Shown here: in pieces, positions 704-49,338 of the stretch
Layout of the letters: every line of letters begins with the position of its first letter
Numbering within the stretch: the first letter of the stretch is position 1
DNA from: Escherichia phage CJY920
Reading direction: 5' to 3' (one strand)
Sequence record: PQ349265.1
DNA: 64,000 nucleotides
The notes under the pieces: generated by a model
What the model was told of the DNA's origin: nothing
The model's input: the letters and a program-made list of their open reading frames with translations, nothing else
Databases searched by the model: none
Made by a program: the position numbers and the translations under genes

Positions 704-2476
704 TTAATTAACTCCAGTCGCATCAAATACACCAGGAGCAGTCGTGCTCGTAACAGGTGTCATATTATGAACGACAGTATTTTTCTTAATAACATTATTA
801 GTATTATTGATCGAAGGAGATACTTGTTGAACAGGAGCTTGCTGTGCTTTGTTCTTTTCTATTACCTGGACTTGTTTTGCTTCTGGCGATTTAGCAGAAG
901 TTTCAGGCTTGGCGTTAGGCTGATTTTTCTTGAGCTCTTGATAAGTAGCATCAATTTTAGAAAATCTAGCAGCAAGTTCCTTTTTAACTGCCGGTGAATT
1001 ATTTAAATCTGGGTCATCCATCCGTTTTTTAAGGTCTTCATAGGCAGCTTCAACTGATTTAACTGTTGAGTCTTTACTCATATCAGCCGAATCAGCATAT
1101 TTTTCAAAGCGAATCATCGCGGCGCGCGCTTCATTAGCCTTCATTAAAGCATTTTTTCTTTCTTCAGGTGAAAGTTGCTTTAATTTTTCTTCTTCTGCTG
1201 CACGTTCTTCGTCGGTAGTTAGTGCTTCTTTATTATCAACGCCACGAATCCAGTTAGATGCACGAGTTTTCCAGTTCGCAATTTTGTCTAGTCCTTCTGC
1301 TATTGGACCAAGGTCTCCATTCATTCGTTTATCTTGATAATTTGCAACTTTTTCCTGGTCTTCTTTATTGAGAGATGCTCCAGTAGAATTTTGGAAATTT
1401 TCTAGCGCTCTTCCTTCTACTTCATCAGCGGTATCCTTCATGCCAGGAATGACTCGAAGAATTGCAGCAGATAATTTAGCCATTCCAAGCTGAATAAGTT
1501 CTCCTAAATTATAAAGAACCTTTCCAAGCCCTTCTACAATAGCTACCGTCAAACCGCCCCAATCTCCCTCTTCCCAGAATTTTTTAATTTCATCAATAGA
1601 ACTAAAGATGCTCTGTAATAAAGGACCCCATGTTCCTGTTTCACTAGAGAATTTAGTAAAGTCTGTACTAAATAAATCCCATGCCTGCGAAAATTTATCT
1701 GACCAATATTTAAAGTGAACCATCAGCAGATCTATTCCAACAACAACAGCCAATATCATTGCAGTCATTTTAGCAGCTTCAATAGCAGCACTGACGGTGT
1801 ACTTAAATAGCATGCTTGATATTTTATCAGTAATTGAAATGGATTTTTTAAATCCAAAATCAACTGTCTTTGTTAATTTATCTAAAGCTTGAGATAATTT
1901 TAAGTTAAATGCGTCTTTTTTCTGTTTTTCTTCTGGCGATTCTTGTTTAGGTTCAACTGGCTGAGGGGTAGGGAAAAAATCAGCATCAGGATCATTATTA
2001 ACTGCTTCAGGAGCCGGTAATAAAGGACCCACAGATTCAGCTGTATCGTCCTCAACAACTTTAACAGGAATAGCGCTTTCAACCGTGGCTAAACTAGTTC
2101 CTGTTTGTTGAATTCCGGCTGTCTGGATTTTTTGCTCGAGTAAACTGGTTAATTTATCTAATTTGCTCCCGAGTGATTCACCGATTTCTTTATTAATATT
2201 GTTGCCAATTTCAACAGTTTCAGCAATTAACTCAGAACCAGCAGTAGTATCACTCACTGCACTTTCTACATTGTCAATTGCTCCAATTATTTCATTCGAT
2301 TTTTCTTCGACAGTTTGAGCAATTAATTCAGAAGCAGCTTGAGCATCATCCAATTTCGTAGATATATCGTTAAGTCCAGATAAAGTGTTAGAAGCGGATT
2401 TAGCCGCTTCCTGTGTTGGTTTATTATCTGAAATAACTTTTCTACGCATCGTTTGCATTTCTTGTGGCTTTTTCAT
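704..2476 (-). CDS. 29: tail length tape-measure / baseplate hub protein gp29
   Basis: 590-aa ORF with ATG start; length and position match T4 gp29; coiled-coil-rich sequence. Confidence 0.9.
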   Translation of the reverse strand: MKKPQEMQTMRRKVISDNKPTQEAAKSASNTLSGLNDISTKLDDAQAASELIAQTVEEKSNEIIGAIDNVESAVSDTTAGSELIAETVEIGNNINKEIGESLGSKLDKLTSLLEQKIQTAGIQQTGTSLATVESAIPVKVVEDDTAESVGPLLPAPEAVNNDPDADFFPTPQPVEPKQESPEEKQKKDAFNLKLSQALDKLTKTVDFGFKKSISITDKISSMLFKYTVSAAIEAAKMTAMILAVVVGIDLLMVHFKYWSDKFSQAWDLFSTDFTKFSSETGTWGPLLQSIFSSIDEIKKFWEEGDWGGLTVAIVEGLGKVLYNLGELIQLGMAKLSAAILRVIPGMKDTADEVEGRALENFQNSTGASLNKEDQEKVANYQDKRMNGDLGPIAEGLDKIANWKTRASNWIRGVDNKEALTTDEERAAEEEKLKQLSPEERKNALMKANEARAAMIRFEKYADSADMSKDSTVKSVEAAYEDLKKRMDDPDLNNSPAVKKELAARFSKIDATYQELKKNQPNAKPETSAKSPEAKQVQVIEKNKAQQAPVQQVSPSINNTNNVIKKNTVVHNMTPVTSTTAPGVFDATGVN

Positions 2477-27100: not shown

Positions 27101-29612
<2,512 letters not shown>

Positions 29613-46731: not shown

Positions 46732-46754
46732 TATAAATATATTATCTATTTATA
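46732..46754. promoter_or_regulatory. divergent late promoters for gene 4 (plus) and gene 53 (minus)
   Basis: tataaata at 46732-46739 (plus, 27 nt before the gene 4 ATG) and tatttata at 46747-46754 (minus-strand TATAAATA, 29 nt before the gene 53 ATG). Confidence 0.5.
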
Positions 46755-46765
46755 AGGAGAATCCA

Positions 46766-47218
46766 ATGGCATATTCTGGAAAATGGGTTCCTAAAAATAT
46801 ATCAAAATATAGAGGTGACCCTAAAAAAATTACGTATAGATCAAATTGGGAAAAATTCTTTTTTGAATGGTTAGATAAAAATCCAGAAATTATTGCATGG
46901 GGTAGTGAAACAGCAGTAATTCCTTATTTTTGTAATGCAGAAGGGAAAAAACGTAGATACTTCATGGATATTTGGATGAAAGATTCTTCTGGACAAGAAT
47001 TTTTTATTGAAATAAAGCCTAAAAAAGAAACACAACCACCAATTAAACCAGCACATCTAACAACTGCAGCGAAGAAAAGATTTATGAATGAAATTTATAC
47101 ATATTCAGTTAATACTGACAAATGGAAAGCAGCTCAAGCTTTAGCTGAAAAGCGTGGAATAAAATTTAGAATTTTAACAGAAGATGGATTACGAGCTCTT
47201 GGCTTTAAGGGGGCATAA
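46766..47218 (+). CDS. 4: head completion protein gp4
   Basis: 150-aa ORF; T4 length and synteny. Confidence 0.85.
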
Positions 47219-48045
47219 TGGCTATTTTTCAAATAATTAATGAAAGCACTCCCCAAGTTCCAAAGGTTAAGCAATCATTAAACGAAAAGAAATGGATTCA
47301 GATAGGTCTTGAATACAAAAAGGCCAAAGCAAAAGGAATGTCAGGAAAGCAATTTGCTGAAGAAAGAGGAATCAAATATTCTACGTTTACTTCAGCAATG
47401 TCAAAATATGCTTCAGGAATTAAAACAGCCGAAAAGATTCAAAATCTTGAATCAAAACCAATGAATAAACTCAATAAGCAAGAAAGACAACTGCTTATGA
47501 TAAATTCATTCAGACAAACATTGCGTGATAAAATTCGTAATGAAGGCGCAGCAATTAATAATAAAACCAGAAAGTGGTTTGCTGAAACTATTAAACAGGT
47601 AAAAGGACATAAAGTTGTTCGCCCGCAGCCGGGACGAATATATGCTTTTGCTTACGATGCTAAACACAAGGAAACTCTTCCTTATTGGGATAAATTTCCT
47701 TTGATAATTTACCTCGGTTTAGGTAAACATAATTTAATGTATGGATTGAACTTGCACTATATTCCACCTAAAGCTCGTCAACAGTTTTTAGAAGAGCTTT
47801 TAAAGCAATATTCAAATACACCTACTATTACTAATAAAACGAAATTAAAAATTGATTGGAGTCAAGTGAAAGGATTTAGGGGTGCAGACCAAATGATTAA
47901 GGCATATATACCCGGTAATATTATGGGTAGCCTTGTTGAAATCGCCCCGAAAGACTGGGCGAACGTTGTATTAATGCCACTCCAAAGCTTCTACTCCAAA
48001 GGAAAACGTTTCTCTGCAAACAAAGTTTGGAGCAATGTACGATGA
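47218..48045 (+). CDS. 2: DNA end protector protein gp2
   Basis: 275-aa ORF; T4 synteny. Confidence 0.85.
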
Positions 48046-48701
48046 ATTATGAAAAAATTTATAATTCACTAATTGATAGGGCTCGCAATAGAGCCCTTAT
48101 TGGATATAAAGAAAGACATCATATTATTCCGAAATGTTTAGGCGGTAGTAATGATGCTTCTAACTTGGTTGATTTAACTCCAGAAGAGCATTATGTTGCA
48201 CATCAGCTATTAGTAAAAATACACCCAAATTCTTTAAAATTATCTTATGCAGCCATAAAAATGACGGTTTCAACTAAATATGTTAGGAGAAATAATAAAG
48301 TTTATGGTTGGTTAAAAAGAAAACATGCAAATAATATTTCAAATACACAAACTGGACGAAAATATTATAATAATGGTAAAAGATGTATAAAATTGCATGA
48401 TGGAGATATAATTCCTGAGGGATTTATTTTAGGAAGAGGATGGAGTCCGACACAAGGCACAACTCATTCTAGAAAAAATGATACATTTAAAAACAAAAAG
48501 CTTCAATCTGCTTTAGCTAATAAACGGTGGGAAAAAGAAAAGAAAATAATGTTAGATAACTTTGGAGTTAGCACTATTGATGAAGCAAAGAAAATTGTTC
48601 TTGATTTTAAATCAACTTGTCATCCAAGATATTGGCGAAAGCCAACTTTAGAAAAATTTCCATTTATGACTTCTGCTCGTTTAAGAAGTCTAATAAATTA
48701 A
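48042..48701 (+). CDS. HNH homing endonuclease (Mob-like) inserted between genes 2 and 3
   Basis: Track ORF starts at TTG 48027; ATG 48042 (ATGA overlap with gene 2 stop) gives 219 aa; [38 protein letters not shown] core. Confidence 0.8.
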
Positions 48702-48807: not shown

Positions 48808-49338
48808 ATGTCGCAAGAACTACAACAAATTTTTAACCAAGCAAATACAACTAACTTTGTAGTATCAATACCGCATAGTAATACTACATCTGCTTTTACT
48901 TTAAATGCTCAGTCAGTTCCTATTCCAGGAATTAGGATACCTGTTACTGATACCGTGACTGGGCCGTTTGGACTAGGCCGAGCACAGCGTCCAGGAGTTA
49001 CATTTGAGTACGACCCACTCATTGTGAGATTTATAGTTGATGAAGAGCTTAAGTCGTGGATAGGAATGTATGAATGGATGCTAGGAACTAGTAACTATCT
49101 TACAGGCGAAAATACTGCCCAAAAAACAGGTCCTGAATACATTACGCTTTACATTTTAGATAATAGTAAAACTGAAATCGTGATGTCAATAAATTTTTAT
49201 AAGCCTTGGGTTTCTGACCTGTCTGAAGTAGAATTTAGCTACACGGAAGATTCAGACCCGGCTTTAGTATGTACTGCAACGATTCCTTACACCTATTTTC
49301 AAGTAGAAAAAGATGGAAAAATTATAGCAGAAGTTTAA
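48808..49338 (+). CDS. 3: tail completion / tail tube terminator protein gp3
   Basis: Track ORF starts at TTG 48727; ATG 48808 with GAGGA RBS gives 176 aa (T4 length). Confidence 0.85.
   Translation: MSQELQQIFNQANTTNFVVSIPHSNTTSAFTLNAQSVPIPGIRIPVTDTVTGPFGLGRAQRPGVTFEYDPLIVRFIVDEELKSWIGMYEWMLGTSNYLTGENTAQKTGPEYITLYILDNSKTEIVMSINFYKPWVSDLSEVEFSYTEDSDPALVCTATIPYTYFQVEKDGKIIAEV

Follow-up and report, generated by a model that had tools for sequence, protein, structure and literature searches.

A probable free-standing Mob-family HNH homing endonuclease gene at the end of gene 2 in Escherichia phage CJY920

The genome of Escherichia phage CJY920 (PQ349265.1) carries an open reading frame for a putative HNH endonuclease between genes 2 and 3, and its start codon lies on the stop codon of gene 2. 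This raises the question of whether the frame is a selfish element, a nuclease that serves the phage in the gene cluster where it sits, or a recent copy of the similar gene found between genes 13 and 14 of the same genome. We analyzed a 64,000-nucleotide stretch of this phage, referred to here as the window, to which all coordinates apply. The frame is best explained as a selfish, free-standing T4 Mob (HNH) homing endonuclease gene at the end of gene 2, a reading to which we assign a probability of roughly 85%.

The gene is already known, with annotations in RB32 and some 35 further records. RB32ORF146c (ABI94970.1, DQ904452) was entered in 2006 as a [quoted passage not shown]. The window carries this very gene, at an identical junction and with an identical 4-nt overlap on gene 2; the RB32 protein is 99.1% identical to the window protein, from which it differs by a few substitutions, and copies occur in RB33, HY03, e11/2, fPS-2 and others. 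Literature searches found no paper that characterizes the 2/3 HNH gene.

Reading frame and insertion anatomy

The gene order in this Tequatrovirus window is 5 and 53 (both on the minus strand), 4, 2, the HNH frame, 3 and 1, with the HNH frame co-oriented with both of its neighbours (Table 1). An earlier, sequence-only reading of the locus had given the frame as 48027–48701. An open reading frame with these limits exists, but 48027 is a mechanical call at an upstream in-frame TTG, and the protein quoted in that reading itself begins at the ATG at 48042, which is likely to be the true start. The same reading had also described an overlap between this ATG and the gene 2 stop, and this is indeed what is seen: in cgATGAatt, the ATG occupies 48042–48044 and the TGA 48043–48045. 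A start/stop overlap recurs in orthologs at the same junction, as ATGA in X20 and as TAATG in QL01 and NM4.3, and the 13/14 gene likewise starts with a 4-nt overlap with its upstream late gene.

Table 1. Features of the 2/3 locus and of the related 13/14 gene in the window
Feature	Coordinates	Strand	Basis
Putative T4 late-promoter box, exact (TATAAATA), before gene 4	46732..46739	+	pattern scan
Gene 4, preceding gene 2	46766-47218	+	
Gene 2, coding for the DNA end protector (275 aa); host gene ahead of the insert, presumed target	47218..48045	+	96% DNA identity to T4 gene 2
Gene 2 variant block, CAAAGCTTCTACTCC vs CAGCAGTTCGTTTCA (QSFY in place of QQFV in gp2), 48-57 nt ahead of the HNH start	47985..47994	+	
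Element-specific recoded end of gene 2	48031..48041	+	alignment with T4 and 19 other genomes
Mob-family HNH homing endonuclease gene (probable), free-standing, 219 aa, RB32ORF146c ortholog	48042..48701	+	ORF scan, PHROG 655, records
N-terminal Mob nuclease domain, aa 1-103, HHIIP(26-30)...N41...H50...H54	48042..48350	+	T4 Mob alignment, AF2
Beta-hairpin motif, aa 105-131, common to HNH relatives with unrelated tails	48354..48434	+	homolog alignment, AF2
C-terminal four-helix domain, aa 152-218, presumed DNA-binding, 2/3 orthogroup only	48495..48695	+	alignment, AF2
Right junction, HNH stop TAA at the position of the T4 gene 2 TAA	48699..48701	+	alignment with T4
Gene 3 (tail completion and sheath stabilizer, 176 aa)	48809..49338	+	near-identity to annotated T4/RB32
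Paralogous Mob-family HNH gene (195 aa) at the 13/14 junction	28099..28686	-	in 46/502 related records

Relative to T4, the window contains about 668 bp in place of the final 9 nt of gene 2, with sharp boundaries; this is a simple insertion, and the frame lies outside any intron or intein. Gene 2 of T4 ends in AAAGTCTGG TCA AAT ATC TAA (gp2 ...SNI), whereas gene 2 of the window ends in AAAGTTTGG AGC AAT GTA CG-ATGA (gp2 ...SNVR), where the hyphen precedes the HNH start codon. The recoded serine codon together with G48029–G48030 forms a GGAG Shine–Dalgarno sequence (48029–48032) 9 nt upstream of the HNH ATG. A single edit to this late gene of essential function, from SNI-stop to SNVR-stop, may have given the element its own ribosome-binding site, set its start on the stop codon and destroyed the insertion site.

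At the right junction, the 3′ end of the HNH gene (GTCTAATAAATTAA) is similar to the end of T4 gene 2 (GTCAAATATCTAA). This resemblance suggests that the element sits immediately ahead of the final four gene 2 codons, for which it supplies replacements of its own, a placement that is also supported by phage Manna, which has a T4-like version of the right-junction sequence. The 107-nt intergenic region upstream of gene 3 is the same as in T4, and the GC content of the HNH insert is 29.5%, compared with 35–37% in its flanks.

A pattern scan found a single exact late-promoter box upstream of the HNH gene, at 46732. Because this sole box precedes gene 4, the HNH gene seems to be a promoterless cassette within a late 4-2-HNH-3 transcript; mobA, mobC, mobD and mobE have been reported as promoterless cassettes within late transcripts (PMC2988022). 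Scans for sigma-70 promoters and terminators at the HNH gene showed no enrichment. Coupling of its translation to that of gene 2 is plausible from the overlap. RNA hairpins over the Shine–Dalgarno sequence and AUG were considered as a regulator and rejected: the window gave a z score of −2.97, but such hairpins are not conserved in three orthologs or at the 13/14 gene.

Distribution, diversity and decay

The sequence-only reading had proposed a check for presence or absence of the gene in related phages, and such polymorphism was found in two genera. A 2.1-kb query running from gene 2 to gene 3 matched 513 phage records, 36 of which carry the insert (97–98.5% identity), while nearly all other Tequatrovirus records among them, like T4, have an empty 2/3 junction. 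Among Dhakavirus-type phages, the gene is present in 11 of 58 records. The closest flanks to those of the window belong to Shigella phage SF2-1 (98.5%). Proteins that are about 99% identical are encoded in 36 phage records, where they are annotated as homing or intron-like endonucleases, and orthologs with 60–65% identity occupy the 2/3 junction in Dhakavirus (QL01), Winklervirus (X20) and Moonvirus (NM4.3). A search of IMG/VR with gp2 returned three close Tequatrovirus loci, all without the element; other Mob-like ORFs were observed in IMG/VR loci at the 53/4 and 4/2 junctions.

Population-level comparison was based on an alignment of eight carriers, 11 non-carriers and one deletion derivative. 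In gene 2, in gene 3 and in the region between them, carriers diverge from non-carriers by as much as genomes within either group diverge from one another (about 2–3%), except over the final ~60 nt of gene 2, for which between-group divergence rises to 12–16%. Diversity is 0.77% in the HNH gene versus 2.3–2.9% in the flanks, which are fully shuffled. This pattern fits an element that moves through recombining backgrounds, and the low diversity of the HNH gene relative to its flanks suggests recent spread. The population data are also consistent with super-Mendelian inheritance and co-conversion of flanking sequence.

Three independent decay events were detected. CT01 has a 486-bp in-frame deletion that removes aa 14–175, FL23 and FL44 are frameshifted by a 1-nt deletion at 48221, and in Manna the loss of 1 nt at the stop codon joins the ORF in frame with gene 3. 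Decay of copies is as expected in the life cycle proposed for homing genes, and it raises the possibility that the window copy is itself an inactive relic, kept by linkage or by mobilization in trans. T4 offers parallels in MobA, which is annotated as defective, and in I-TevIII, which is defunct. This reading is unlikely for the window copy because the copy is intact and of the commonest allele: the full-length ORF matches that allele at 99.5% identity, the protein retains all residues that are invariant among 46 homologs, and the reduced diversity of the gene suggests recent spread.

A domesticated role would make the protein an HNH nuclease that serves the phage in DNA packaging or end processing near gp2 and gp4, instead of a selfish one. 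HNH proteins work with terminases in HK97-like phages, and the location of the gene in a cluster for head completion and DNA ends, its late-gene orientation and its overlap with gene 2 would suit such a function, as would the persistence of full-length orthologs at the same site in four genera. We nevertheless consider this very unlikely, because about 93% of Tequatrovirus records, T4 included, are without the gene and because viable isolates carry deleted or frameshifted copies; in addition, a mobile insert typically has the low GC content, reduced diversity and sharp boundaries seen here.

Family membership and protein domains

From the letters alone, the 2/3 frame had been read as a Mob-like HNH endonuclease gene, paralogous to the 13/14 insert but with a different C-terminal half, and the pair had been taken to reflect recent spread of one endonuclease to two structural-gene junctions. 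Family membership, paralogy and the divergent C-termini are all borne out, whereas the recent spread is not. Both proteins match PHROG 655 ("homing endonuclease"), the 2/3 protein at 2.9e-58 and the 13/14 protein at 1e-45. In a pairwise BLASTP comparison, 53 of 116 positions are identical (46%, E 3e-28) between residues 1–111 of the 2/3 protein and 1–113 of the 13/14 protein, so the paralogy holds at the family level and extends beyond the generic HNH motif of about 30 residues; no significant alignment was obtained in the C-terminal parts.

The two window proteins were further aligned over the N-domain with MobB, MobC, MobD and MobE from the T4 record. This alignment has 25 invariant columns, including H26, H27, N41, H50 and H54, and the 2/3 protein contains the N-terminal family pattern MNYxKIYNxLI...HHIIP...GGxD...NxVxLTxxEHxxAHxLLxKI. 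Over this domain (~95–100 aa) the 2/3 protein is 45–54% identical to the four T4 proteins; the highest value is with MobB (54%), the window pair shares 51%, and the remaining pairs share 38–51%. The C-terminal parts are 10–23% identical when forced into alignment. Mob proteins are described as a conserved HNH domain joined to member-specific C-terminal regions (PMC2790892; PMC2988022). Target-specific DNA-binding tails, as suggested in the sequence-only reading, are likewise part of what these papers say of Mob proteins.

The DNA of the two window genes aligns in no more than two short pieces, one of 58 nt (72%) and one of 49 nt (80%). Because their N-domain identity lies in the ordinary Mob range and their DNA similarity is vestigial, they appear to be old members of one family and not recent copies of each other. 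Each also appears to belong to its own site-specific lineage: the 13/14 gene is carried by 46 of 502 related records and the 2/3 gene by 36, and only ESh30, among the records listed, has both. A recent duplication, in which one gene jumped from junction to junction and then exchanged its DNA-binding tail, would account for the 46% identity of the N-terminal ~113 aa and for the 4-nt overlap on an upstream late gene with which both genes begin, but it is very improbable, given that 51% N-domain identity is not above that of MobB or of other Mob pairs, that so little of the DNA aligns, and that the orthologs of each gene are fixed at their own site in many phages with almost independent distributions.

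An AF2 model of the 2/3 protein (mean pLDDT 89.6) predicts an N-domain, with pLDDT above 90 over residues 1–103, in which a beta-beta-alpha core is followed by helices. The predicted HNH core comprises strands 24–27 and 42–45 and then helix 47–60 (pLDDT above 95), and H26, H27, N41, H50 and H54 are invariant in 46 homologs. Next comes a predicted hairpin of strands 107–110 and 115–118 inside a conserved YYNNG...PEGF.GR motif, where G105, P125, G127 and G131 are conserved in the homolog alignment. Homologs that cover only ~60% of the query stop at this motif, and many more proteins match residues 1–131 only and continue into other tails.

Beyond a linker of low model confidence (aa ~135–150), the C-terminal four-helix domain is predicted with pLDDT ~89–95, and the C-terminal 71 aa modelled alone also give four helices (pLDDT 89). 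This domain is conserved solely in the full-length orthologs (P0001–P0024). A fold search of the PDB with it found nothing significant, the best matches being DsrD, a Fur winged helix and a Sox HMG domain, all with E above 3. Since the separate model lacks a significant PDB match, we do not call the domain helix-turn-helix, and, as no solved structure resembles the four-helix domain significantly, the tail is presumed to bind DNA by analogy with other Mob proteins.

Foldseek with the whole model gave weak HNH matches (Cas8-HNH, McrA and Gme; E 0.25–4), and a PDB sequence search returned no match at E ≤ 10. The protein scores below the Pfam gathering cut-offs for HNH (16.4 vs 21.4 bits) and HNH_5 (17.6 vs 27.5 bits), and NCBIfam gave just sub-threshold HNH-domain matches, to IscB and HlpB. 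PF01844 is matched by 32 of the 46 homologs at E ≤ 0.01, and the sub-cut-off score probably reflects a Mob subfamily that has diverged from the profile, not an absent fold.

Two named relatives help to place the protein. I-HmuI (PDB 1U3E), an HNH nicking enzyme encoded within an intron of Bacillus phage SPO1, has the general plan that is also predicted for the 2/3 protein, with an N-terminal HNH nuclease domain, an extended linker and a C-terminal helical DNA-binding module; unlike I-HmuI, the 2/3 gene is free-standing. I-HmuI was not among the fold-search matches of the 2/3 model, just as no PDB chain was matched by sequence, and it has been cited as a structural model for Mob proteins (PMC2790892). 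T4 MobB, encoded between alpha-gt and alpha-gt.2, has the closest T4 N-domain to the 2/3 protein, and some records, such as CAM-21, name the 2/3 gene "mobB". However, the two proteins have unrelated C-terminal regions (10% identity when forced into alignment), the genomic sites differ and the target of MobB is listed as unknown (PMC2988022, Table 1), so that this label is valid at the family level only.

Candidate target and proposed homing mechanism

The variant block that changes gp2 from QQFV to QSFY was examined as a possible target of the endonuclease. Carrier-linked substitutions within the final 60 nt of gene 2 are indirect evidence for a site-specific nick or break in the allele that lacks the element. 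QSFY is present in 37 of 37 element-bearing records; collection-wide, it also occurs in 15 of ~465 element-free records, while ~450 have QQFV. The 15 element-free QSFY genomes keep the T4-type gene 2 end. Twelve differences that appeared to be fixed between carriers and non-carriers (9 vs 11 genomes) were discarded as such in light of these 15 records, and the strictly element-specific differences are only those from 48031 onward.

Element-free phages from several genera have conserved the stretch that encodes PLQQF(V/M)SKGKR. In carriers, the corresponding stretch of gp2 reads QSFY in Tequatrovirus, QAFH in Winklervirus X20 and QSFQ in Moonvirus NM4.3. The QSFY block is therefore a reasonable candidate for a recognition or immunity site, or for a co-converted flank. 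It may also reflect hitch-hiking ancestry rather than a target, because 15 element-free records have QSFY, because Dhakavirus carriers keep QQFV or QQFM and show changes two to three codons upstream instead, and because L009, a distant element-free phage, has QSFQ. A fuller scenario, in which a compact self-serving cassette is combined with QSFY-conferred immunity to cleavage and the 15 element-free QSFY genomes are "cured but vaccinated", is tentative, and we regard it as possible rather than probable. If the same gp2 codons are the target in all four genera, the lineage would have tracked one site across the Tevenvirinae.

The best-studied point of comparison is MobE, a free-standing HNH homing endonuclease encoded between nrdA and nrdB of T4 (Wilson & Edgell 2009, PMC2790892), which nicks a conserved neighbouring gene away from its insertion site, at a position where carrier alleles are polymorphic (PMC2790892). 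The N-terminal nuclease domains of MobE and the 2/3 protein are 46% identical. Like mobE, the 2/3 gene seems to be promoterless and to need transcription from upstream; both genes have a start/stop overlap (UAAUGA in mobE, AUGA at the 2/3 junction), and both are polymorphic among T-even phages. The 2/3 protein differs in its C-terminal part, which is another and longer one (219 aa in total versus 141 aa for MobE), and in its site among late structural genes instead of the nrd genes; in addition, no internal terminator was found in a scan of the 2/3 gene. Nicking is reported for MobE and is predicted for the 2/3 protein.

The insertion anatomy, the polymorphism in two genera, the low diversity, the AT-richness and the decay are direct readouts of the sequence data, and the most likely mechanism of the 2/3 HNH gene, by analogy, is that of MobE (PMC2790892). 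By comparison with MobE and MobA (PMC2790892, PMC2988022), the gene would be transcribed late, on a message that spans genes 4 and 2, the HNH gene and gene 3, and its low-level translation would be coupled to termination of gene 2. Upon mixed infection with an element-free genome, the helical domain at the C-terminus would bind the conserved 3′ end of gene 2 in that genome, and the N-terminal HNH domain would then nick nearby in a strand-specific manner, or possibly cut. Recombinational repair from the element-bearing genome would then give the recipient a copy of the HNH gene together with ~60 bp next to it. In the carrier, the recoded tail of gene 2, and possibly the QSFY block as well, would protect the site.

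For annotation, the 2/3 gene is thus to be treated as an accessory selfish gene that is neither structural nor a packaging gene, and it gives no evidence for recent duplication within this genome. It is typical of the T-even mobile endonucleases and leaves the current understanding of them unchanged. Its value lies in a natural example of the homing-endonuclease life cycle, with intact, deleted, frameshifted and apparently cured alleles in public genomes, and in a concrete candidate target, the stretch encoding PLQQFVSKGKR at the gene 2 3′ end, which would make it a convenient Mob enzyme for studying homing driven by HNH nickases and marker exclusion in T-even crosses.

The endonuclease gene in Manna and CT01

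In Salmonella phage Manna, the stop codon of the Mob-family endonuclease gene has been lost through a 1-nt deletion at the end of the gene, and the frame runs on across the intergenic region into gene 3 to give an annotated HNH-gp3 fusion ORF of 431 aa. T4-like sequence (GTCAAATATCTAA) is found at the right junction of this locus. Shigella phage CT01 retains a 57-aa remnant of the endonuclease ORF, from which a 486-bp in-frame deletion has taken out residues 14-175, that is, the entire nuclease domain. An imperfect repeat, CACTA(A)TTGAT, lies near the deletion breakpoints.

Coordinates of the features discussed here
Feature	Sequence	Position	Strand	Remarks
HNH-gp3 fusion ORF	Manna (L064, PP987310)	825-2120		equivalent to window 48695
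Remnant ORF	CT01 (L059, OK018184)	1025-1198		deleted part, window 48081-48566
13/14 HNH ORF	window	28099-28686	minus	between genes 13 and 14
86-aa ORF	window	27873-28133	minus	downstream of 13/14 HNH gene, different frame
Gene 13	window	28683-29612		late gene upstream of 13/14 HNH gene
Start/stop overlap	window	28683-28686		13/14 HNH gene and gene 13
Inverted repeat, CTTCCATTC...GAATGGAAG	window	48711-48760		gene 2-3 intergenic region; predicted 10-bp stem
Mob-type HNH ORFs	L011 and L013 (phage loci)	about 1337-1672		
Mob-type HNH ORF	L018 (phage locus)	1611-1940		

The HNH gene between genes 13 and 14

The start of the 13/14 HNH gene overlaps the stop of gene 13 by 4 nt, just as the 2/3 HNH gene overlaps the stop of gene 2. 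Its 3' end is in turn overlapped by the 86-aa ORF, which contains two copies of a CPHC...C...H/C motif and aligns with the C-terminal portion of the PHROG 655 profile ('homing endonuclease'; positions 152-234, E 1e-5). The site of this overlap is a C5A6 run (gacccccaaaaaat). The 13/14 endonuclease may either be broken by a frameshift or use one, in which case the zinc-finger ORF could represent its true C-terminal part, with a predicted role in DNA binding.

The gene 2-3 region and the surrounding late-gene cluster

An inverted repeat in the gene 2-3 intergenic region is conserved across T4 and every relative aligned, element-bearing and element-free alike. No T run follows the repeat, which may serve in mRNA processing or stability.

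The carrier-type QSFY block of gp2 occurs together with the T4-type gene 2 end in 15 element-free records (L081, vB_SsoM_113; L082, LH2; L083, F26; and 12 others; equivalent to window 47985-48041). These genomes may preserve the element's ancestral background, or may have lost the element precisely.

Further Mob-type HNH ORFs were observed at the 53/4 and 4/2 junctions of distant T4-like phages in IMG/VR (loci L011, L013 and L018). The late-gene cluster around genes 53, 4 and 2 is a recurrent landing zone for Mob-type HNH genes.
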